From assembly GCA_965220385.1 (NCBI GenBank), contig OZ244825.1, forward strand, positions 777,142 through 841,141: a stretch of 64,000 bases of DNA. Reading direction: 5' to 3'. This DNA is from Candidatus Poribacteria bacterium. Lineage in GTDB: Bacteria; Poribacteria; WGA-4E; PCPOR2b. Made by a program: the position numbers and the translations under genes. The notes below the pieces were generated by a model that was given only the letters and a program-made list of their open reading frames with translations, searched no databases and was not told where the DNA came from. Position 1 is the stretch's first letter. Each line of letters begins with the position of its first letter. Positions 10,161-20,212 of the stretch are shown here, one piece after another.

Positions 10161-10166
10161 TTGTCA

Positions 10167-10560
10167 AAACGTAATACGTAAAGAAGATGTAACGCAAGGG
10201 GGCAAGGCCGCAAAGGAAAAAAGAGAGCGAAAAGAGAGAAGGCGGGAAAACGAGAAAACGAGAACGGAGGCATTTAGCCCCGGCGGGGCGGCATGTTTGT
10301 AGAATGTGGTATCACCCCACTAACAAAAGCCCCAGCGGGGCGACATGTGATACCGTAAAACGTAATACGTAAAGAAGATGTAACGCAAGGACGCAAAGAA
10401 AAAAAGAGAGCGAAAAGAGAGAAGGCGGGAAAACGAGAAAACGGGAACGGAAGCATTTAGCCCCAGCGGGGTGACATGTTTATAGAATGTGGTATCACCC
10501 CACTAACAAAAGCCCCGGCGGGGCGACATGTGTGTTTTCGCTCCAGCAGGACGATATGTC
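10167..10560. repeat. Two tandem copies (about 200 bp period) of a composite intergenic repeat: purine-rich tract plus MITE-like palindromic unit TTTAGCCCCGGCGGGGCGGCATGTTTGTAGAATGTGGTATCACCCCACTAACAAAAGCCCCAGCGGGGCGACATGTG
   Basis: 10167-10366 and 10367-10560 are nearly identical. The inner unit recurs at 36870-36905, 37048-37130 and 50068-50150. Confidence 0.85.
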
Positions 10561-10622: not shown

Positions 10623-12047
10623 ATGAAGATCCCAAGAGACGATAAGGTTCGTATGCTTAGATTTGCCGTACAGTTTTTGCCAGCGATGATACCTCTTTTT
10701 TTCTCCTTGTATTTCTGGAAAAAGGGGTGGACTGAGCCTGTCATAACCTTTATGTTGCTAAGTATTGGACTGATATTATTAGGGGGCTTTCTGATTCTAG
10801 TCAAGAGGATCATAGGCAACGATAGGTATTTTGTGGTTATAGGTGGCGCTCTGCTTATTCTGATAGGGTTGTATTGCTGGATAGGCAGCGGTAATATCTA
10901 TACGAGCATATTTGCTGTATTGGTCGGTATGGCTGTAATATTAGGGGAGATGTTAAAAGAAAAGCGGTGGCAGATTAGTATCACTGTTGCATTAGTGCTC
11001 GCTGTAGGCACTATCATCTATCTGGAAGAAACCAGTGAAGATAAAGGACATGCTGTCGACAGCGAGGGGGGCGTACAGCAGGAGGTCGTGGATAAAGCAT
11101 CGGCACCCAGCGATGTTCCAAGCGGTGAACCCGCAGTTTCGGCTACATCCGAACAGTCGATGACTGATATGATGAATCGGTTCTTAACTCCTGAGCAACG
11201 TGAAAATCCAACATTCCAGAAAGTAATGAAGGTTATGGAGTCCGATTCATTTCAGAAGCAGATGCAGGAACAAGATCTGCGGACACCGCAAGAATTTATT
11301 GACCTCATGGCAGCACATGGATTAACGGAGTTTGCAGAGATAGATTATGATAAAATCATGGCTGATGCCTATGCCCTTTCCGCACAACAATACGCTACCG
11401 CAAACCCCGGTAAAGACCCCGCGGACGACGATGAGGTAATGGCAAAACGAATCGGAGAAAGCCTGAAGACCGCCGATCCTGTATATGGCATAATGGAAAT
11501 TATGCAGGATCGCGAGATTGCTCTGTGGATGAGTGCCCGTTTCAAAGGGGACCAAGCTGCGATGAGTGAGTGGTTGATGCCGGTGATGAAAGGCGCCGTA
11601 TCGGCTGACTCTGCAAATTCGTCGTCCGCACCAATGGATTTTGAATTCCCCGACGGGTTTTTGTCCGATAGCCCTCCTGACGAACCCACAGAGCAGCTCC
11701 CTTTCGTAGAATCGGAACCCTTACTATCTGACCCCAGCCCGACATCAACGCGGAAAGAGCCTTCCATCCCCGACACCGAAAAGAGTTCCGCAGCAGCACC
11801 AACGGTTGAACCGGAAAAGATTCTCACTGAACTGTCTCCAGAACCGCCTGCACTCCCTACGGACGAGGAACTTGAAACGGCGTTAAGGGAACGATTTTCG
11901 CCTGAGCGTTTCGAGCGGGCAATGACAACGTTGGAGCGGTATGGACCGGAAGAGGGACTTCGCCGCCTTCGAGAGGCTGATCCGGAAATCGCCAAGCAGA
12001 TGGAACGGCGCCGCAGTAGAGAAGGTGGAGAGCAGGATTCCCGATGA
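10623..12047 (+). CDS. Polytopic membrane protein with a long acidic disordered C-terminal region ending in a conserved EEGLRRLREADPE motif
   Basis: N-terminal hydrophobic helices; the C-terminal RYGPEEGLRRLREADPEIAKQ matches the C-terminus of the 13418 protein (YGTEEGLRRLRVSDPDAARQ). Confidence 0.5.
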   Translation: MKIPRDDKVRMLRFAVQFLPAMIPLFFSLYFWKKGWTEPVITFMLLSIGLILLGGFLILVKRIIGNDRYFVVIGGALLILIGLYCWIGSGNIYTSIFAVLVGMAVILGEMLKEKRWQISITVALVLAVGTIIYLEETSEDKGHAVDSEGGVQQEVVDKASAPSDVPSGEPAVSATSEQSMTDMMNRFLTPEQRENPTFQKVMKVMESDSFQKQMQEQDLRTPQEFIDLMAAHGLTEFAEIDYDKIMADAYALSAQQYATANPGKDPADDDEVMAKRIGESLKTADPVYGIMEIMQDREIALWMSARFKGDQAAMSEWLMPVMKGAVSADSANSSSAPMDFEFPDGFLSDSPPDEPTEQLPFVESEPLLSDPSPTSTRKEPSIPDTEKSSAAAPTVEPEKILTELSPEPPALPTDEELETALRERFSPERFERAMTTLERYGPEEGLRRLREADPEIAKQMERRRSREGGEQDSR

Positions 12048-12068: not shown

Positions 12069-12446
12069 ATGCCATTTGGAGAAAAGGTGCGCGAGTATAT
12101 CCTCAGGAACGTCGGGAAGTTGGGGATCGGTTGTGGGATAGGGATGATTTTGATGGGAGCGTATATTCTGATAATAGCGAGCAATGCAGGCAGGGGGTCT
12201 ATCTTTCATCCGGGCGCGGGCTATGTCCTACTGGGTATAAGTTTCATCACCATGAATCTCTTAGAGTGGAAGCCGTTGCTGATGCTTACCTGCACTGTGG
12301 TTGCGCTTGGACTCGCGCTGTTGCTACTCGTATTCAAGCCCGGAGATGAAACCGCTGAGCGCGCGGCGGTTGTGCAGCAGGAGGCTGTGGAAGCAGCGTC
12401 AAAGCCCAATGGAGTGCTAGATGACGCGGCGTCTCTTACGCGGTAG
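12069..12446 (+). CDS. Small integral membrane protein (3 predicted TM helices)
   Basis: An AAGGAG Shine-Dalgarno precedes the ATG; hydrophobic segments; stop lies in the conserved ...TR-TAG-GG context that precedes U element 1. Confidence 0.4.
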   Translation: MPFGEKVREYILRNVGKLGIGCGIGMILMGAYILIIASNAGRGSIFHPGAGYVLLGISFITMNLLEWKPLLMLTCTVVALGLALLLLVFKPGDETAERAAVVQQEAVEAASKPNGVLDDAASLTR

Positions 12447-12454
12447 GGAGAGCA

Positions 12455-12620
12455 TCTTCAATCAATACAGCTAGCGGTATCATACTCTTGTTTACGGGCA
12501 TAATATCGCTTTTTTGTGCTCACAAAACGCCACCCTTCGATTGCCTATGATGTGAGTCGGTTAAAACGATTCAAAACCTCCGCATCTTTTTCGTGGAATA
12601 TGGTAAATCAATAAGGGACT
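12455..12620 (+). promoter_or_regulatory. U element copy 1: hairpin/T-run terminator followed by a conserved about 100 bp module ending in an extended -10-like TGGTAAAT (degenerate copy)
   Basis: Aligns to the copies at 14436, 18122 and 20062: AGCGGTATCATAC...ATGATACCGCTTTTTTTGTGCTCAC...CAAAACCTCCCCATCTTTTTATCGGAATATGGTATAATCACGCA. Confidence 0.6.
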
Positions 12621-12667: not shown

Positions 12668-12820
12668 TGTTAGTAAAAGTTACTAACATTAGTAACATTT
12701 GCTAGCAATAGTTACTAATAACCGAGTTATTTCCTTCAACGACTTTTTAGACATTTCGCGCTTGAAGCCTGATGCCCACTGGGTTTGTGCGATTTTCGTT
12801 TCTTTTGGCATGTTAATTGC
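12668..12820 (+). promoter_or_regulatory. Sigma-54 promoter unit 1: UAS of TTAGTAA/TTACTAA palindromes (12668-12720) plus -24/-12 element TGGCATGTTAATTGCT (12805-12820)
   Basis: GG and GC spaced exactly as in the TGGCAC-N5-TTGC consensus. UAS palindromes sit about 100 bp upstream, the classic enhancer-binding-protein geometry. The unit is repeated at 16371-16523 and 18313-18451. Confidence 0.7.
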
Positions 12821-12995
12821 TTCTTATGGGTCTGTGGTTGAACACTTCAACCGTAACGCGTAGCGGAAAAGCATAGATTTTCAATGATTAGCTTATTCTC
12901 AAAGTGGGTGTGCTAAGACATTTTGTGAAGTTGAAAATCTTTCCTTTCTGGCCAGAATGCTAAACGCATTCTTAACAATTCAAAGGAAAAAGCAC

Positions 12996-13322
12996 ATGAA
13001 AAACTTAGGGGTTCTCTTCTGCGCCATTTCACTCGTCATGATGATCGGCCTAATGGTCGTATTTTTTACGGAACCCGCTGAAGCAGGAGCAGACGAGAAG
13101 ATAAGGGTAAAAAATGTTGTAAAATATTACGATGACTTTGACAATTACTGCCCTAACCTTTCATACACTAGAATCACCCTTGAACCAGTTGTATACAATG
13201 GATATGGTCACTACTATAACTACCATATAATGGGTAACTCGGGACACACTAGTCACAGTTATCAGATCGTGTCATGGGTCACCATTCATACAACTTTTAC
13301 CGTTGCTAGTTGTAATACTTAA
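12996..13322 (+). CDS. Small secreted/membrane-anchored protein (N-terminal signal/TM; Tyr/His/Asn-rich C-terminal half, 2 Cys)
   Basis: MKNLGVLFCAISLVMMIGLMVVFF signal-like N-terminus; first gene downstream of sigma-54 promoter 1. Confidence 0.45.
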   Translation: MKNLGVLFCAISLVMMIGLMVVFFTEPAEAGADEKIRVKNVVKYYDDFDNYCPNLSYTRITLEPVVYNGYGHYYNYHIMGNSGHTSHSYQIVSWVTIHTTFTVASCNT

Positions 13323-13417
13323 GCATCGTTAGAAAACTAGGCAGCCCAGCCTCTACTCGTGTCTCCGTAGGGGCTGGCAAAAAAACAGTTAAGCGATTCA
13401 GAAGGGACGGTATTTTG

Positions 13418-14422
13418 ATGCGAAAGGTTGTTCTATTGATCTCCGTGATAGTTATTCTAACAGCAGGCTGGATTTTCTACCTAAACCGGGAAAAAAAGAA
13501 CTTTATAGAGAATCTACCGCAATCCCCTGCGGTTGTTAACCAACCTATTAACAGTTCCTCTTCATCAGTAAATGAAAAGGAGGATTCTAGCTACTTTGTT
13601 GAAGTGGATGGGAAGAAATTCATTCCTGATGGCCGCCTGCATAAGACACTTCCACAGGAGCAGACCGCCTCCGCAGAAAAAACGTCTTCAGAAACGCCCA
13701 CTCCAGACGAGAAAGCAGATTTTGTGCGCGACCAATGGATTCAAATGTTTGGAGACATTCCACAGGTTCATGCCGCATCTGAGTACATGAGAAAAATATA
13801 CAAACGGGAACGTATGACAATTGATGAAGAGATTGCTGGCTTAGAAGCCTCACACTACCTATTTCCAGAGGGTGGGCATGGACTAATGTTGGCAATACGA
13901 AAGACTCAGAAAGCACAGGGGCTCGACGAGGACGACTTTGAGATCGTGTATGAGGAGGATTGGGAGAATGTAAGGCCTCCGCCGGGTTATAAGGAATATC
14001 ATTTTGGGAATGTACCTGAGCATCTCCGGTCCGATACCCCTGCACCTGATAGGATTTTTTCAGAAAGCATTGATGGAGATATAGACTTTCCTCCTGCTCG
14101 TTCTGAGGGGACTCCTGTAATGCCGGAACCTAAGACCTCAGTCACGTCTGACCATGTTCACCATGGAGATAGGCATGTACACGAACCGCCCACCCTCCAA
14201 CCGCCTGCACCGACAACTGCTAAAGGTGTTGAAGCGAACGGCTGGGAGGGGTTATCGTCTAAACAACGGGAGCAGGCGAAAGCGTTCTTTGACGAATATG
14301 GCACAGAGGAAGGGCTGCGGCGGTTGAGGGTGTCTGATCCTGACGCTGCGCGTCAATTTGGGCAGGAACGGCAGAAACCGCCTATCCCTTCCGAACCAAA
14401 TGATGAATCTTCTACGCAGTAG
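13418..14422 (+). CDS. Single-pass membrane-anchored protein with a disordered Pro/Glu-rich region and C-terminal EEGLRRLR...DP motif (paralogous at the C-terminus to the 10623 protein)
   Basis: N-terminal TM VVLLISVIVILTAGWIFYL; C-terminal FFDEYGTEEGLRRLRVSDPDAARQF. Confidence 0.5.
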   Translation: MRKVVLLISVIVILTAGWIFYLNREKKNFIENLPQSPAVVNQPINSSSSSVNEKEDSSYFVEVDGKKFIPDGRLHKTLPQEQTASAEKTSSETPTPDEKADFVRDQWIQMFGDIPQVHAASEYMRKIYKRERMTIDEEIAGLEASHYLFPEGGHGLMLAIRKTQKAQGLDEDDFEIVYEEDWENVRPPPGYKEYHFGNVPEHLRSDTPAPDRIFSESIDGDIDFPPARSEGTPVMPEPKTSVTSDHVHHGDRHVHEPPTLQPPAPTTAKGVEANGWEGLSSKQREQAKAFFDEYGTEEGLRRLRVSDPDAARQFGQERQKPPIPSEPNDESSTQ

Positions 14423-14435
14423 GGGCGGGCTTAAA

Positions 14436-14585
14436 TCCATACAACAGCGGTATCATACCCTGGTTCACGGGCATGATACCGCTTTTTTTGTGCTCACAGC
14501 GTGGTGTTAGGTAGCCGAAACGCCTCAAAACCTCCCCACCTTTTCATAGGAATATGGTATAATCACGCAGGTTATTATTTGAGAG
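14436..14585 (+). promoter_or_regulatory. U element copy 2 (terminator hairpin AGCGGTATCATACCC...GGCATGATACCGCTTTTTTT plus conserved module with TGGTATAAT)
   Basis: Best-conserved copy; perfect 11 bp stem followed by T7. Confidence 0.65.
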
Positions 14586-14881: not shown

Positions 14882-15853
14882 CTACGAAATTCCCAACTTT
14901 TCCATCTTATAGCGGAAAGTGGAGTAAGGGATGCCGAGATTTTTTGCGGCTTGAGTGCGATTCCAATGGGTTTCTTCAAGTGCCTGTGTGATCTGATCGT
15001 GCTCGCTCTCGACTGCCGATTCGTCAGGTTGTGACGGCAGTTCTTCCAATGCCTCTCCTTGAATATCAAGATGCTCGATTCCTATCAACGAGATCTTGGG
15101 TGGACAGAGAACAGCGGTGCGCTCAACGATATTTCGCAGTTCACGGATGTTGCCGGGGTATTGATAATCCAGAAGGGACGATTTAGCCCCGTCTGAAAAG
15201 CCGTCGAAGCTGCGCCCTCTTCTGGCGGTGTATGCCGCTAGGAAATGGTCCACCAACGGCAGGATATCTTCTGTTCTTTCCCTAAGCGGTGTGAGGTGGA
15301 TAGGAAAGAGGTTGAGCCGATGGAATAGATCACTGCGGAACTGTCCAGATTTGACAAGTTGTGGCGGATCTCTGTTGAATGCACTGATAATATGTGCTTG
15401 AAAGGAGATCTCCTCGGTGCCGCCAAGCCGTCTCAGCGTCCGGGTGTCGAGAACCCGCAGCAACTTAGCTTGTATGTCGAGTGGGAGGTCAGCAATTTCA
15501 TCCAGCAGAAGCGTGCCGCTATCTGCTATCTCAAAGTAGCCGGGTTTATCCGTCGTTGCATCGGTGTATGCCCCTTTGACGTGGCCAAAGAGTTCGCTTT
15601 CGACCAACGACTCTGGCAATGCCGAACAGTTGACAGCGACAAACGGCTGCTCTTCCGAAGACCCTTGAAAATGAATTGCCCGTGCGACCACCTCTTTTCC
15701 TGTGCCCGTTTCGCCGGTGAGGAGAATCGTATCAACCTTTGCTGCGACCGCCTGCCGGATGCGTTCTCGTACCTCTTGCGTAGCTGAACTATCTCCCACA
15801 AGGAATCGGTTTTGTATCCGCGGATTGTGATAGCTCGTAGATCGATTATCCAT
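14882..15853 (-). CDS. Sigma-54-dependent transcriptional activator (bacterial enhancer-binding protein) with no N-terminal regulatory domain (PspF-like architecture: AAA+ domain plus C-terminal HTH)
   Basis: GETGTGKE Walker A, ESELFGHVKGAYTDA (GAFTGA-type sigma-54 contact loop), RELRN (sensor II) and C-terminal HTH NLGIPYSTFRYKMEKLGI. The AAA+ domain starts about 40 residues from the N-terminus, so no receiver/GAF/PAS domain. Start chosen at MDNRST after an AGAGGG Shine-Dalgarno. Confidence 0.8.
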   Translation of the reverse strand: MDNRSTSYHNPRIQNRFLVGDSSATQEVRERIRQAVAAKVDTILLTGETGTGKEVVARAIHFQGSSEEQPFVAVNCSALPESLVESELFGHVKGAYTDATTDKPGYFEIADSGTLLLDEIADLPLDIQAKLLRVLDTRTLRRLGGTEEISFQAHIISAFNRDPPQLVKSGQFRSDLFHRLNLFPIHLTPLRERTEDILPLVDHFLAAYTARRGRSFDGFSDGAKSSLLDYQYPGNIRELRNIVERTAVLCPPKISLIGIEHLDIQGEALEELPSQPDESAVESEHDQITQALEETHWNRTQAAKNLGIPYSTFRYKMEKLGIS

Positions 15854-15961
15854 TTGTCCCTCTCTTCTCGATAAACGCGGCTTGACTGTTTTATCCTCAA
15901 AAGAGTTGATGTATCGCATGGTCAGCTACTTTCGAGGTTCTCCACTGTTCCCATTTCCTTT

Positions 15962-16224
15962 CTATACTTAGTAAAGGATACAGGAGGACACAGACAGGGG
16001 GCAAATTTGTTTTCTTTAGTTTGAAACAAATAGTTTCAAGTTAAAAAAAATAAATTGATTCGTCTTAAAAAATAGTTCAAGCAGCTGCCGAATTTTTGTC
16101 AAGCATGGGCGAGGTGACCTCGCCCCTACAGTTGGCTGCGTAAGTTCTATACTCAAAAGGATACAAGAGGACGCAGACAGGATGCAAATTTAAAATCTTT
16201 AGAGTTAAACCAACAGTTTAACTC
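15962..16224. promoter_or_regulatory. Two copies (about 185 bp apart) of an about 80 bp element in the divergent promoter region of the bEBP gene, each carrying a perfect palindrome (TTGAAAC-N5-GTTTCAA; GAGTTAAAC-N5-GTTTAACTC)
   Basis: 15962-16040 and 16147-16224 align (CTATACT.A..AAGGATACA.GAGGAC.CAGACAGG..GCAAATTT...). A GGCGAGGTGACCTCGCC hairpin at 16108-16125 lies between them. Confidence 0.6.
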
Positions 16225-16370: not shown

Positions 16371-16523
16371 GTTAGCAATAGTTGCTAACATTAGCAATAG
16401 TTGCTAAGCAACAGTTGCTAATAATTGGGTTAACCGCTTCGGCGACTTTTTGCATATTTCGCCTTGAAAGCCTGATGTCCGCTGGGTTTGTGCGATTTTC
16501 GTTGCTTTTGGCATGATAATTGC
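16371..16523 (+). promoter_or_regulatory. Sigma-54 promoter unit 2: UAS TTAGCAATAGTTGCTAACATTAGCAATAGTTGCTAAGCAACAGTTGCTAA (16371-16430) plus -24/-12 TGGCATGATAATTGC (16509-16523)
   Basis: Consensus spacing exact; three TTAGCAA-N3-TTGCTAA palindromes about 90-140 bp upstream. Confidence 0.75.
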
Positions 16524-16656
16524 CCCTTATGAGTTTGTGGTTGAACCTTTCAACCATGATAAAGGATTTTCGATAGGTAGCGATTTGAATTATGAGTACA
16601 CAAGCATTGTATTGTGCAAATCGTAACACCACACACTTAATGAGAGGAGAGATACG

Positions 16657-17421
16657 ATGAAAACCATATTTGACGTGCTTCGTCACCCGCTGGTTATCGG
16701 TGCACTCGTATTGAGCATCCTCATTGTGGTAGGTGTGTATTTCGGAAGCCATTGGTACTATGGTGATGTTGAACCAGTTGAAATGCCGGAGGTTTCTGCA
16801 CCTGCTCCGCCCCTGCCTAAAAATCTTTCCGTCTCTGAAGTTGATTTGAGTGGTCTGGATGGGGAATCATCCCCACCGCAAACGGAATCAGAGCCTACAG
16901 TTTCGTCTGTGGAAGGCGAGTCGGTCGATGATTTCTTGGCAGAGCTATCGGATGAGGAGATGGCTCTGTTGACAGCTGAGGTGGTGGAACCTCAACGGGT
17001 TTCTCCCTTTGGCTTTGGTCCATATCCCCAAGTACCTTCAGATTTTCCCGAAGATCCCATTTGGGAAGAAGATATGGAAGCAAATATCTCACAATTTGGC
17101 AGCGAAGCGATGAAGGAAGCAGAATTGATGGATCGGGTTTTAATTCAACTCTGGAATCAGGGACATCGTGCTACTTCTGCGTCAAAGCACAGTAACGGGC
17201 TCGTCTATCCATCATTTCCCAACACGGTCTTTGTCCGATGGGACTACATAGAGGAAGAAGATGGGACAATTACTAAATATGCAAGGAGAATATCTAGTGG
17301 TGCGGAGGTATCAGATAGTGACCTTAATGATTTAGGGGAAGGGATTATTCCGCCCGGCATAAAGGTGCTTGACTATGATTCAGATGGAATAAATCCCTAC
17401 ACTTTTTTGAATCTTAACTAA
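16657..17421 (+). CDS. Single-pass membrane-anchored protein, family A (N-terminal TM, Pro/Ser/Glu-rich linker, conserved about 140 aa C-terminal domain ending PYTFLNLN)
   Basis: 77% paralog of the 18587 protein; GAGGAGAG Shine-Dalgarno; no recognisable domain. Confidence 0.6.
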   Translation: MKTIFDVLRHPLVIGALVLSILIVVGVYFGSHWYYGDVEPVEMPEVSAPAPPLPKNLSVSEVDLSGLDGESSPPQTESEPTVSSVEGESVDDFLAELSDEEMALLTAEVVEPQRVSPFGFGPYPQVPSDFPEDPIWEEDMEANISQFGSEAMKEAELMDRVLIQLWNQGHRATSASKHSNGLVYPSFPNTVFVRWDYIEEEDGTITKYARRISSGAEVSDSDLNDLGEGIIPPGIKVLDYDSDGINPYTFLNLN

Positions 17422-17435
17422 TAAGGAGAAATAAG

Positions 17436-17804
17436 ATGCGTAAACATTTTTTGGGTGTCTTGATAATCTGCTTTTTGTCTGTTTTTTCCGTGCTTTCTTT
17501 TGCAAAAAAATCCGGGCCGCTAACAGCTGAAGCTTCTATATACAAAAAACGAACACAGACAGTAGCCAAGGCGAAGGTTCAGGCGACAGTTGCAGCAAGG
17601 CATGGGGCGTGGGCAATATCCGCTGTCTCAGGGAATAACTCTGATGGCGATGCTGGACACTATCGATACGGACTATCTACCCAAGTTGTACACCCAAAAG
17701 ATTACACCTCACGCGCGTCAAATGCGAGGGCTAGCGCGTGGATTTCTGGACACGATCGGCATGGCAAGGCTTGGTTTGTACAAGATTCAAAACCTGACAA
17801 CTAG
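17436..17804 (+). CDS. Small secreted protein, family B (Sec signal peptide; mature about 95 aa with ...ASAWISGHDRHG... motif)
   Basis: MRKHFLGVLIICFLSVFSVLSFA signal peptide; TAAGGAG Shine-Dalgarno; homologous to the 19369 protein (shared NSDxD...TS.A.A.(A/S)WI(S/T)G(H/Y)(D/N)RH). Confidence 0.55.
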   Translation: MRKHFLGVLIICFLSVFSVLSFAKKSGPLTAEASIYKKRTQTVAKAKVQATVAARHGAWAISAVSGNNSDGDAGHYRYGLSTQVVHPKDYTSRASNARASAWISGHDRHGKAWFVQDSKPDN

Positions 17805-18121
17805 TATTTGGTGTTCGCAGACGTTTAACAGACCGGGGGTGTACCTTCAGATTTGAGGATATGCCCTCTTTTTTATGCTCCGTTTGCTCTAAACTTAATC
17901 AGCAGTTTTCCGAGGATACCAGCAATATCACGCGATAGCAGCATACCAGATTCTATAGCGCAATCTTCCGGACTGATTGAGCTAGGATTACTGCGCTACA
18001 GTCCGGGTATTTTCAGTTCACTAGAGACTCTAGCATAACGTGCTGGGTATTTGCGATTGGCGATCTGAAGGGGAACGACGCGAGTCGCTTGTTCATTCCG
18101 GTACGCAGTAGGGTAAACGTC

Positions 18122-18265
18122 TTCAATTAACACAACTAGCGGTATCATATCTTTTTTAGGGTTATGATACCGCTCTTTTGTGCTCACGGCGTGGCGTGAG
18201 TCAGCTAAAGCACCTCAAAACCTCCCCATCTTTTTATCGGAATACGGTATAATTACCAGGCTGCT
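18122..18265 (+). promoter_or_regulatory. U element copy 3
   Basis: AGCGGTATCATATC...GTTATGATACCGCTCTTTTGTGCTCACGGCGTGGCGTGAGTCAGCTAAAGCACCTCAAAACCTCCCCATCTTTTTATCGGAATACGGTATAAT. Confidence 0.65.
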
Positions 18266-18312
18266 ACTCGTGCTTCATGCGGCTTTCCAGAAACATCGGT
18301 GTGTGCAGAAAA

Positions 18313-18451
18313 GTTAGTAATTGTTGCTAACATTAGCAACAGTTGCTAATAATTGGGTTAACCGCTTCGGCGACTTTTTGCATATTTCGCCTTGAAAGCC
18401 TGATGTCCGCTGGGTTTGTGCGATTTTCGTTTCTTTTGGCATGTTAATTGC
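18313..18451 (+). promoter_or_regulatory. Sigma-54 promoter unit 3: UAS palindromes (18313-18350) plus -24/-12 TGGCATGTTAATTGC (18437-18451)
   Basis: About 95% identical to unit 2 over roughly 280 bp, including the long leader. Confidence 0.75.
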
Positions 18452-18586
18452 TTCTTATGAGTCTGTGGTTGAACCCTTCAACCATGATAAAGGATTTTCG
18501 ATAGGTAGCGATTTGAATTATAAGTACACAAGCACTGTACCGTGTAATTTCTAACACTGTACACTTAAATGAGAGGAGAGCGTACG

Positions 18587-19357
18587 ATGAAAACGGTACT
18601 TGACCTGCTTCGTCACCCGTTGGTTCTCGGTGCACTCGTATTGAGCATCCTCATTGTGGTTGGTGTGTATTTCGGAAGCCATTGGTACTATGGTGATGTT
18701 GAACCAGTTGAGATACCGGAGATCTCCGCTCCTACTCCCGCCCTGCCTAAAAAATCTGCCTCCTCTGAAGTTGATTTGAGTGGCTTACAAGGGGAATCAT
18801 TGACACTGGAAACGGAATCAACGCCTACAGCACCGTCTATGGCAGTCGAGTCGGTCGATGATTTCTTAGCAGAGCTATCGGCTGAAGAGAAAGTACTGTT
18901 GACGGCGGAAGTGGTGGAAGATACGCAGCCGGTTTCCCCATTCGGTTTTGGTCCATATCCCCAAGTACCTTTAGACTTTCCCAGAGATCCCATCTGGGAA
19001 GCAGTCGAGATGTACGAAAAAATCAATCAACATGGACGTGGTATGATGAAGGCAATAGAATTGATGGATCGGGTTGTAATAAAACTCTGGAATCAGGGGC
19101 ATAGAGCAAGCTCTGCGTCAATGAGTAAAGGACGCGTCTATCCGGGATTTCCCAACACGGTTTATGTCCGATGGAGTTACATTGAAGAACCAGATGGGAC
19201 AATTACTCGATATGCAGGACGAAAAACGAGTGGGCCGGACATCCCCGAAAGTGTCTTTGATGCTTTAAGTGAGGGGATTGTCCCACCCGGCATAACCGTA
19301 CTTGATCATGATGCTGATGGAATAGATCCTTACACTTTTTTGAATCTTAATCAATAA
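18587..19357 (+). CDS. Single-pass membrane-anchored protein, family A (paralog of the 16657 protein)
   Basis: MKTVLDLLRHPLVLGALVLSILIVVGVYFGSHWYYGDVEPVE... is near-identical at the N-terminus and conserved in the C-terminal domain. Confidence 0.6.
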   Translation: MKTVLDLLRHPLVLGALVLSILIVVGVYFGSHWYYGDVEPVEIPEISAPTPALPKKSASSEVDLSGLQGESLTLETESTPTAPSMAVESVDDFLAELSAEEKVLLTAEVVEDTQPVSPFGFGPYPQVPLDFPRDPIWEAVEMYEKINQHGRGMMKAIELMDRVVIKLWNQGHRASSASMSKGRVYPGFPNTVYVRWSYIEEPDGTITRYAGRKTSGPDIPESVFDALSEGIVPPGITVLDHDADGIDPYTFLNLNQ

Positions 19358-19368
19358 GGAGAAATAAA

Positions 19369-19767
19369 ATGCGTATACGTTTTTGGGTCGGTTCGATAAT
19401 CTGCCTTGGTTCAATAATCTGTCTTTTGGTTACTTTTTCCGTACTTACCTCGATAAGCCACGCGGCAGGTTGTGACGAGTCAGAGTGTGACGAAGGGGTC
19501 TGTGCTAGTGCGAGGATAAGTGGTGGGGCAGAGCTAAAAGCAAGAGGGGTCGTGCGTGCTCCGAACAACTGTTGGGGCGGCTGGGGGATAAACGTGCGCG
19601 CTGGAACTAACAGTGACAGCGATTCAGACTATTACACAGGTGGGACAAGGAACGATCTGGAGGTTAAGCAGCATACGAGCCAAGCGAAAGCAACCTCGTG
19701 GATTACTGGGTATAATAGGCATGACGAGTCTTATTATGCCAATGCCTGTGATGAGTCTGGTGGTTGA
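19369..19767 (+). CDS. Small secreted Cys-rich protein, family B (paralog of the 17436 protein)
   Basis: Signal peptide, 6 Cys, conserved ...ATSWITGYNRHDES... motif; identical TAAGGAGAAATAAAATG ribosome-binding-site context to the 17436 gene. Confidence 0.55.
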   Translation: MRIRFWVGSIICLGSIICLLVTFSVLTSISHAAGCDESECDEGVCASARISGGAELKARGVVRAPNNCWGGWGINVRAGTNSDSDSDYYTGGTRNDLEVKQHTSQAKATSWITGYNRHDESYYANACDESGG

Positions 19768-19892
19768 TTCATCTGCAAAGCACGGACTGTTGACATTTTG
19801 TGCTTGAGATTTGTATAGTAACAGCGATTTCGCCGGAGTAGGCTTGTTAGGTATTGCTTAACAAGTTCAAGTTTTTTACAAACCCATATCAT

Positions 19893-19950
19893 AAAAAACG
19901 GGATGGATACCGTATCGCCTATCTTGTGGTGTCCAACCCGTTTTTTGTGC
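19893..19950. terminator. Bidirectional rho-independent terminator hairpin (AAAAAACGGGATGGATACC...GGTGTCCAACCCGTTTTTT)
   Basis: 13-14 bp imperfect stem flanked by an A-run and a T-run, downstream of the 19369 gene. Confidence 0.55.
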
Positions 19951-20061
19951 CCAAGATCCGAAAAAACTTCATATTTCCCCTGTGGATGTTTCTTTACGTC
20001 CGGTGATGAAATATCTCTAGTTAAAAGGGAGTCTGCGCTCTTGACACAGTAGGGCTGTGTC

Positions 20062-20212
20062 CTAAATCAATACAACCCGCGGCATCATACTCTTTTTTCA
20101 GGGGATATGATACCGCTTTTTTTGTGCTCACAGCGTGGCGTGAGTCGGCTAAAGTGCTTCAAAACCTCCCCATCTTTTTATCGGAATATGGTATAATCAC
20201 GCAAGTTGTTAT
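20062..20212 (+). promoter_or_regulatory. U element copy 4, immediately upstream of the sucC-like gene
   Basis: CGCGGCATCATAC...GATATGATACCGCTTTTTTTGTGCTCACAGCGTGGCGTGAGTCGGCTAAAGTGCTTCAAAACCTCCCCATCTTTTTATCGGAATATGGTATAATCACGCA. Confidence 0.65.

Follow-up and report, generated by a model that had tools for sequence, protein, structure and literature searches.

Two-gene cassettes of Candidatus Poribacteria pair a conserved membrane-anchored protein with a variable small exported protein under predicted sigma-54 control

Introduction

Why do neighbouring gene pairs in a Poribacteria genome encode closely similar membrane-anchored proteins, each followed by a small exported protein that differs strongly from its counterpart next door? 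The locus in question lies in a stretch of 64,000 nt of a Candidatus Poribacteria bacterium (assembly GCA_965220385.1, contig OZ244825.1, positions 777,142 to 841,141 of the forward strand), here called the window, whose own numbering is used throughout. Two small open reading frames (ORFs), at 17436..17804 and 19369..19767 on the plus strand, each stand behind the gene of an anchored protein, here called the partner. We refer to the two pairs as cassettes B and C, and to a further unit upstream of them as cassette A. A sequence-only reading of the locus had seen in the small products a pattern typical of diversifying secreted effectors or bacteriocins, and had raised the anchored protein as their possible immunity or receptor protein. 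Poribacteria are an uncultivated candidate phylum, known largely from sponge- or coral-associated and free-living metagenome bins, and most of their lineage-specific genes are without a known role. We conclude with high confidence that the pairs belong to a Poribacteria-specific, sigma-54-controlled family of two-gene cassettes, made of two uncharacterised protein families of which the small exported one is variable.

Two paralogous small exported proteins

The 17436 and 19369 ORFs are genuine paralogues within a family of small Sec-exported proteins restricted to Poribacteria. Their products are 32% identical across 112 aa (BLASTP, E=1e-13), close to the 30% or so proposed from the sequence alone, and profile searches with either product retrieve the subfamily of the other. 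The shared motif on which their kinship had been argued is borne out by the alignment, with NSDGDAGHY in one product matching NSDSDSDYY in the other and TSRASNARASAWISGHDRHG matching TSQAKATSWITGYNRHD. The similar ribosome-binding sites that had also been pointed out are indeed near-identical, reading TAAGGAGAAATAAGATG at 17422-17438 and TAAGGAGAAATAAAATG at 19355-19371 (common form TAAGGAGAAATAA(G/A)ATG), and each small gene starts 11-14 nt past the stop codon of its partner gene.

Both precursors begin in the manner of type I signal peptides, with a basic n-region, a hydrophobic h-region and small residues at -3/-1 (MRKHF-LGVLIICFLSVFSVL-SFA|K in the 17436 product and MRIRF-...-SHA|A in the 19369 product), whilst other family members have AIS|D/E at the cleavage site. 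From this n-h-c organisation, Sec-type export is predicted for both products, in keeping with the earlier view of a small Sec-exported family paired with an anchored partner, which the pairing counts given below also support. A lipoprotein reading was rejected, as no conserved lipobox ([LVI][ASTVI][GAS]C) stands at the end of the signal peptide: the residues leading into the first mature Cys differ among orthologues of the 19369 product (AAGC, GEGC, AADC, ATDC, GSGC), and the 17436 type has no such Cys.

The 17436 product is a 122-aa precursor of a Cys-free protein of about 99 aa (pI 10.1), and the 19369 product a 132-aa precursor of a Cys-containing protein of about 100 aa (pI 4.7). The predicted mature proteins are thus both of about 10.6 kDa and far apart in charge. 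Of the seven Cys in the 19369 precursor, two fall within the signal peptide, and the five that remain in the predicted mature protein (positions 35, 40, 45, 68 and 127) are all kept in orthologues. The six Cys and three disulfides assigned to it previously must therefore be corrected; with five Cys in the mature protein, three intramolecular disulfides are impossible. The signal peptide of the 19369 product also contains a six-residue tandem duplication (GSIICL GSIICL, 19390-19425) that recurs in the homologues P0011 and P0013 and at locus L009 and is missing from other Cys-type orthologues. The exact 132-aa product is absent from a collection of 15 billion proteins in which its neighbours on the same contig are present; the gene is probably uncalled, or called with another start, in public annotation.

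An AlphaFold2 (AF2) prediction from a shallow, 18-sequence alignment gave a best model with a mean predicted local distance difference test score (pLDDT) of 84.9 and a predicted template modelling score (pTM) of 0.73. This model is all-beta and built of consecutive hairpins: it opens with a short N-terminal strand and continues with seven more, each of 6-10 residues, so that the 17436 product would be an eight-strand meander. The small proteins are accordingly modelled as all-beta domains of about 100 aa mature length, resembling an immunoglobulin (Ig)-like sandwich. Foldseek searches against the PDB and BFVD returned nothing at E<=1e-3. The structural comparison suggested with the sequence-only reading thus yields an all-beta model, with neither a significant structural match nor a bacteriocin family behind it. 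In size, Sec export and predicted all-beta sandwich the small protein is like the CsgC/CsgH curli inhibitors, ApaG-like proteins and Ig-like periplasmic inhibitors. The best single-domain matches were CsgH (2n59, E=6.4e-3, TM-scores 0.40/0.45) and CsgC (2xsk). These TM-scores reflect generic fold resemblance, and there is neither sequence similarity to CsgC/CsgH nor any curli gene.

A conserved anchored partner

Upstream of the small genes, partner B (16657..17421, plus strand, 254 aa) and partner C (18587..19357, plus strand, 256 aa) are 71% identical by BLASTP (182/256) and 72% by global alignment, somewhat less than the 77% stated before. Partner C was recognised by BLASTP, by its database homologue P0046 and by the partner hidden Markov model (HMM). 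Its start is placed at 18587 and not at the listed ORF start of 18569, because a ribosome-binding site precedes 18587 and P0046 is 256 aa long.

The partner is predicted to be a bitopic inner-membrane protein, consisting of a membrane anchor with the N-terminus inside (residues 11-35 in partner B), an acidic Pro-rich linker of about 55 aa (approximately 41-91) and an alpha/beta domain of about 140 aa carrying the invariant SPFGFGPYP..P. The C-terminal domain would face the periplasm, since the residues flanking the membrane helix are positively charged on its N-terminal side and acidic on its C-terminal side. An AF2 model from 76 sequences (mean pLDDT 74) agrees with this layout, showing a helix at 11-35, disorder at 41-91 and a C-terminal domain with pLDDT of about 90. 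Across the phylum, conservation is restricted to the periplasmic part. The conserved residues are S116-P-x-G-F-G-P-Y-P, P127, P131, W136, E156, L157, R160, K164, L165, W166, G169, Y184, P185 and G203, together with a C-terminal GI-PY-FL-L. The idea that partners might meet at one membrane hub through an invariant helix was discarded: helix and tail are near-invariant in the close subfamily and unconserved phylum-wide.

In layout the partner recalls TonB and TolA, which likewise have an N-terminal anchor, an extended Pro/Glu-rich linker and a C-terminal globular domain, and its PYP motif and a VxVxW..DG..SSG-like stretch resembled TonB. However, comparison with E. coli TonB by hhalign gave a probability of 0.2%, no TonB_C or TolA homology was found by Pfam searches on 76 members, hhalign or Foldseek, and the partner cassettes contain no ExbBD or TolQR genes. 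A Foldseek search with the partner gave no structural match (best E=1.0), and neither TonB nor TolA was among the matches.

A module restricted to Poribacteria

Close relatives of the small proteins are few. Among 5.8 billion clustered proteins we found 10 for the 17436 product and 7 for the 19369 product, and a profile of both subtypes recovered 24 representatives among 1.84 billion proteins. They sort into orthologous subtypes (Cys-free, five-Cys, two-Cys and others), each kept between genomes. The partner family is larger, with 198 clusters, one of which carries the NCBI name Candidatus Poribacteria. Moreover, a scan of one genome per prokaryotic species gave 232 genomic relatives of the partner, and every named record was Candidatus Poribacteria. 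Partner-bearing records include bins of sponge, coral and free-living origin as well as complete chromosomes of 5-7 Mb, usually with several loci per genome.

None of eight proteins of the island formed by the cassettes and their companion genes matches a Pfam, NCBIfam, PADLOC or PHROG family. For the small and partner proteins there is no Pfam or NCBIfam match even at E<=1, and 76 partner homologues are likewise without a Pfam match. The PADLOC and PHROG scans gave a single, Zot-like match at chance level (E=0.05), and sequence profile searches of the PDB returned nothing even at E<=10. A housekeeping periplasmic protein family, which would have spoken against the effector idea, did not emerge from the Pfam, NCBIfam or PDB searches either. 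A full-text literature search found no paper on the partner/small-protein module. Both families and the cassette design are thus without a described counterpart; they are new at the level of family and architecture, and their function could still prove to be of a known kind.

The pairing of the two genes extends well beyond the window. At the eight loci that were found through small-protein or close partner homologues (L001-L008), every partner gene is followed by a member of the small family, and L006 holds five such cassettes in tandem. A wider set comprised 94 ORFs that start within about 130 nt of partner genes at Poribacteria loci, 79 of which have a signal-peptide-like hydrophobic N-terminus. 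Keeping only those with such an N-terminus, a length of <=300 aa and no homology to the partner left 73 ORFs. Iterated HMM searches assigned 32 of these to the small family, and 30 of the 32 form one BLAST cluster. The other 43 proteins lie outside this main cluster and are spread over 27 more, mostly singletons. With at least 28 BLAST clusters among the downstream signal-peptide ORFs, the description of the small protein as the variable component is upheld.

The iterated searches of the downstream proteins level off at 48 ORFs, and profile-profile comparison supports remote homology for a few clusters only. A single superfamily embracing all downstream proteins was therefore set aside as unprovable, given the halt at 48 ORFs and mostly weak hhalign results; motif enrichment is the one observation in its favour. 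Of 41 downstream proteins outside the family, 18 have a strand motif, G-x-[WY]-x-phi-x-small-x-phi, at the equivalent place, compared with 2.2/41 in shuffled sequences and 3.6% of background ORFs. From the pairing counts and this motif, we derive as a rule for the phylum that a conserved anchored protein is followed by a highly variable small exported protein. In distant Poribacteria there are also arrays of 4-8 partner homologues (L029 1674-10316, L033 7071-16714, L046, L051 and L065), some with two partner paralogues per small gene; the exported proteins downstream in these arrays are 90 to 260 aa long and unrelated by BLAST.

A shared sigma-54 promoter and a candidate activator

A promoter region of about 230 nt is common to three units of the window, with gene starts at 12957/12996, 16657 and 18587. 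It contains the element TGGCAT-N5-TTGC, of the sigma-54 (-24/-12) type, at 12806, 16509 and 18437, each about 150 nt before the start codon. The copies of cassette A (12806..12821, plus strand, TGGCATGTTAATTGCT), whose surroundings can be aligned to their counterparts in cassettes B and C, and of cassette C (18437..18452, plus strand) match the strict pattern exactly, making two exact matches in the window where 0.14 are expected. The copy of cassette B (16509..16523, plus strand, TGGCATGATAATTGC), 149 nt before its start codon, was recognised by reading the sequence and from the alignment. Upstream of each promoter, at a distance of 100-140 bp, lie two or three copies of a 17-bp palindrome, TTAGYAA-N3-TTRCTAA, as candidate activator sites: three for cassette A (12670..12718), three for cassette B (16372..16421) and two for cassette C (18314..18349), all on the plus strand. 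The window contains eight matches to this palindrome, all of them at these positions, against an expectation of 0.01.

Between the cassettes, on the minus strand, lies a gene for a sigma-54 enhancer-binding activator of 345 aa (14882..15919). It consists of AAA+ and helix-turn-helix (HTH) domains only, an architecture like that of PspF (Sigma54_activat 3.7e-62, AAA_lid_14 1.1e-20 and HTH_8 9.9e-14, covering residues 40-342), and lacks any sensory or receiver domain. Orthologues occupy the same place in L001, L002, L004, L009, L012 and L015. Its true start may be the internal Met 23. The canonical sigma-54-contacting loop of such activators is GAFTGA; at the expected position this protein has GAYTDA (context ..FGHVKGAYTDATT..). 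On sequence grounds, each cassette is predicted to be under its own sigma-54 promoter with upstream activator sites, and the adjacent activator is putatively cognate.

Comparable arrangements recur in other Poribacteria, where sigma-54 promoters precede 20 of 96 partner genes (background about 0.014 per 400 nt) and 20 of the 86 sequences searched, made up of 85 loci and the window, have a homologue of the activator at a distance of up to 8 kb. In L006 and L013 a sigma-54 promoter leads into genes for an extracytoplasmic function (ECF) sigma factor and a 90-aa zf-HC2 anti-sigma factor without a membrane segment, which head a cassette array. This suggests a possible cascade from sigma-54 to an ECF sigma factor at these arrays. 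The genes run from the ECF sigma and the anti-sigma factor to five partner/small cassettes in tandem (L006 8949-16583, the same as in L010; L013 7079-10301). Taken together, the promoters, palindromes, activator and ECF linkage indicate that cassette expression is conditional and tied to alternative sigma factors.

Distant Poribacteria also have ORFs of about 1000 aa with an ECF-sigma-like region at most a few kb from partner genes (L040 2419-5595, L043 4607-7390, L073 3321-6410, L076 13351-16332 and L079 2592-5480). A structured 5' leader was considered and rejected (fold z=-0.96, no Rfam family); Rfam searches gave nothing at gathering thresholds, and a scan for tRNAs found none.

Mosaic cassettes and discordant divergence

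A closer comparison of cassettes B and C revealed that their divergence is stepwise. Over the upstream sites, the partner gene, the ribosome-binding site and the first dozen codons of the signal peptide, the two agree at 75-100% of nucleotides. Identity falls abruptly to 35-45% between about 17470 and about 18110; it is regained at about 18140, with 78-91% in the terminator unit. The divergent core of cassette B (17470..18110, plus strand) covers the mature small protein and the 3' untranslated region. The stepwise drop implies that the two halves of a cassette have different histories, through either module exchange or gene conversion of the flanks.

Synonymous sites point the same way. At codons for identical amino acids, the small genes of B and C differ synonymously at 59-75% (85% at four-fold sites, i.e. 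saturated) and the partners at 22%, which is the level seen between orthologues. In orthologous cassettes, by contrast, synonymous divergence at such codons is equal in the two genes, e.g. 16% vs 10% and 23% vs 20%. The contrast between 30% and 71% identity in B and C is therefore not evidence of diversifying selection after duplication alone, because synonymous sites are saturated in the small genes and at 22% in the partners. The sequence-only reading had drawn that conclusion from it (as 30% vs 77%), and the discordant synonymous divergence and the stepwise identity leave it unsupported.

Orthologue comparisons, a check proposed at the time, do set the two genes apart. For the ratio of nonsynonymous to synonymous substitution rates (dN/dS), partner genes gave values of 0.18-0.28 and small genes values of 0.25-1.1. 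When the small gene was split by predicted structure, strands of the Cys type gave about 0.1-0.9 and loops about 0.4-3.3, with values >1 in 10 of 15 pairs; in the Cys-free type, strands gave 0.15-0.19 and loops 0.44-0.78. The small gene thus does lie above the partner, and its Cys-type loops are often above 1, but the paralogue contrast itself does not stem simply from fast evolution after duplication. The dN/dS of the predicted strands, 0.15-0.9, also speaks for real genes of one family.

Cassette order and content also vary among related genomes. In the window (16407-20212) the Cys-free type precedes the Cys type, whereas in the related L001 (7018-10841) and L003 the Cys type comes first, and the islands differ by insertion sequences with a DDE_Tnp_1 domain and by differing extra genes. 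From these patterns the cassettes read as mosaics of three sections: conserved regulatory DNA, partner gene, ribosome-binding site and signal-peptide start; an anciently diverged core; and a conserved terminator unit. On this view the cores are small-protein modules from an old set that has been maintained, and the flanks around them are either homogenised or serve module exchange.

What the cassettes may do

The reading that we favour, with a probability of roughly 0.35, is that the two products form a membrane-tethered periplasmic complex, in which a hairpin of the small subunit docks on the partner domain and its variable loops recognise or neutralise changeable extracytoplasmic ligands. 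An extracytoplasmic or envelope signal would activate the enhancer-binding protein, upon which partner and small protein would be made together and both reach the periplasm. There the partner would bind the small subunit by its conserved periplasmic domain, and the small subunit would probably make contact through the C-terminal hairpin W-I-[ST]-G-x-[DN]-x-x-[GD]-x-[YF], the only element of its surface that is conserved. The loops and the charge of the small subunit, both of them variable, would confer specificity, and candidate ligands are the periplasm-acting toxins of competitors, lytic enzymes, and phage or host proteins. Diversity would be kept by old paralogy and by module exchange between conserved flanks, plus fast loop evolution in some subtypes. 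Variability, module exchange and inducible expression usually mark an interface with competitors, viruses or a host. The module occurs in bins of many different origins, with many copies in a genome, joining a conserved anchor to one of the most variable secreted components in Poribacteria genomes.

Several observations weigh against such a complex. Of the five AF2 models of the small protein a single one was confident, with pLDDT 40-45 in the remainder, and the best Foldseek TM-scores of 0.40-0.45 are to generic Ig-like domains and pick out no binding or inhibitor family. For most downstream clusters the hhalign probability is <50%, so that homology among them is mostly unproven. The pI of the mature small proteins varies between 4.2 and 11, whereas the partner domain is always acidic, so that no simple electrostatic fit is common to the pairs. 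Distances between partners show only a moderate correlation with those between small proteins (Mantel r=0.46), and the two are discordant both ways. The dN/dS values are pairwise Nei-Gojobori estimates, not site-model ones, on about 50 codons, and are noisy. Finally, relaxed constraint could account for the variability without any role driven by conflict.

This last point connects to an alternative that we consider unlikely, in which the cassettes form an envelope-stress or maintenance regulon like the phage shock protein (Psp) response, with periplasmic structural or chaperone-like products whose small members are weakly constrained. In the Psp response too (PspF/pspA), a sensor-less, AAA+/HTH-only activator sits beside sigma-54 promoters with upstream palindromes, and the products are small membrane-anchored and periplasmic proteins. 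Moreover, an ECF sigma factor and its anti-sigma factor head arrays in other genomes, the island products are all membrane-anchored or exported, the conserved Pro and aromatic residues of the partner domain could bind cell-wall polymers, and overall dN/dS is mostly <1. However, Pfam and NCBIfam gave no match to PspA_IM30, PspB or PspC for any of the eight proteins of the island, and neither a homologue of these nor a known chaperone domain was found in the scanned island proteins (the window and the L003/L004 neighbours). The product families lack known relatives, and several paralogous cassettes stand in place of one operon (pspABCDE). Two further points argue for selection on diversity: the maintenance of anciently diverged subtypes as orthologous lineages across genomes, and a dN/dS of >=1 in Cys-type loops.

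Less probable still, in our estimation, is the proposal that the small proteins are secreted antagonistic effectors or bacteriocins, with the anchored partner as immunity protein, receptor or export helper. They are small, signal-peptide-bearing and disulfide-containing; their dN/dS is raised, above all in the Cys-type loops; the genes are tightly coupled and expressed conditionally from alternative sigma factors; and the displacement of modules between conserved flanks recalls orphan toxin/immunity modules. Yet Pfam, NCBIfam, PADLOC, PHROGs and the PDB yielded no match to a bacteriocin, toxin or immunity family. Poribacteria are diderms, in which a Sec signal alone would stop the product at the periplasm, whereas the cassettes hold only the partner and small genes between promoter and terminator, with no linked gene for immunity, lysis or export across the outer membrane. 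Cassettes whose small proteins share about 30% identity have putative immunity partners that are 72-79% identical, contrary to the co-variation usual for toxin and immunity protein, and genomes carry many cassettes, up to five or more of them in tandem. For these reasons (no family match, no export, lysis or immunity-transporter genes, and a partner that is conserved and not co-varying) we do not follow the earlier bacteriocin and immunity/receptor assignment.

Two known systems illustrate the difference. Polymorphic toxin/immunity loci (contact-dependent inhibition cdiA-CT/cdiI, Rhs and type VI secretion system arrays) resemble the cassettes in architecture only, in that tightly coupled pairs stand in tandem arrays and an abrupt switch from conserved to unrelated sequence occurs at a fixed junction, with the variable module exchanged between flanks. 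The cassettes differ in having no toxin or immunity domain, no large delivery protein, and only one variable gene per pair, the conserved one being membrane-anchored, with a sigma-54 promoter for each pair. Lactococcin 972-type Sec-dependent bacteriocins are, like the small protein, small, beta-rich and Sec-exported, but the small protein has no Pfam match, no immunity ABC transporter and many paralogues per genome, and its host is a diderm.

It is very unlikely, in our view, that the cassettes are autoregulated signalling modules, in which the small protein would be a periplasmic co-sensor or ligand adaptor whose state is relayed through the partner to an adjacent regulator. The recurrent linkage to sensor-less regulators (the activator here, and in L006/L013 the 90-aa zf-HC2 anti-sigma factor directly before a partner gene) is what one would expect of such a relay, and in the close subfamily the partner is most conserved in its membrane helix and short cytoplasmic tail. 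Against this, the tail has only about 10 residues, tail and helix are unconserved phylum-wide where the periplasmic domain alone is conserved, and most cassettes stand in arrays or at loci that have no adjacent regulator, no activator homologue lying within 8 kb in 66 of the 86 sequences. That the small proteins are moved to the cell surface as adhesion components, attaching to host, particles or matrix and diversifying under host or phage pressure, would suit the Ig-like fold prediction, the variable loops and charge and the occurrence in sponge-, coral- and free-living-derived bins, but is similarly hard to credit for proteins without a conserved lipobox, with a partner anchored in the inner membrane and with no sorting signal, outer-membrane beta-signal or usher/secretin genes in the cassettes.

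Returning to the tethered complex, a wider extension of it, speculative and improbable as we see it, would make the cassettes a phylum-wide multi-copy repertoire, in which a conserved inner-membrane stalk presents exchangeable, fast-evolving Ig-like subunits in the periplasm, with new specificities gained by module swapping and with sigma-54/ECF switching, for innate extracytoplasmic recognition or neutralisation of competitors' toxins, phage or host factors. Such a repertoire would be made of two protein folds that lack described relatives. If true, tethered recognition would be a new type of extracytoplasmic diversity system; if wrong, the gain would still be a clean sigma-54 regulon in an uncultured phylum, along with two new protein families. 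The system is directly testable in a heterologous host, because the proteins are small and the promoter, palindromes and activator are clearly defined.

Cassette A and other elements of the island

Cassette A encodes a small Tyr/His/Asn-rich protein with a signal peptide (12996..13322, plus strand) and a membrane-anchored protein of 335 aa (13415..14422, plus strand). The small protein belongs to the regulon but not to the family. As a candidate member it was rejected, since from either start (12957 or 12996) the product gave a best BLASTP E of 0.73, no HMM match and no strand motif. Its earlier placement in the analogous slot of cassette A thus holds for position only, behind the same type of promoter and without detectable homology. 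The anchored protein has no match to the partner HMM; it shares a C-terminal domain with the product of 10623-12047, which is also anchored, with the motif YG(P/T)EEGLRRLR..DP (BLASTP E=5e-10), a domain that Pfam does not recognise. A small hydrophobic or exported protein accompanies each of the two, encoded at 12069-12446 for the 10623-12047 product and at 12957-13322 for that of cassette A.

Two direct-repeat pairs, both with a period of 183 nt, lie at 10166-10532 and 15973-16219 (94% and 80% identity); the first contains GC-rich hairpin/T-run sites resembling terminators on the minus strand. A terminator unit of about 150 nt closes the island units in four copies, at 12455-12605, 14428-14559, 18120-18253 and 20060-20212. 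It consists of a hairpin (GCGGTATCAT...ATGATACCGC) with a T-run, followed by a conserved stretch ending GGTATAAT. In the copy that closes cassette B (18120..18253, plus strand) the hairpin and a stretch of about 100 nt are conserved and correspond to repeat families D4, D6 and D7. The last copy (20060..20212, plus strand) lies directly upstream of the flanking ATP-grasp gene (sucC/ATP-citrate-lyase-like), and because of this the unit looks like the terminator/promoter region of that gene, copied with each cassette duplication.

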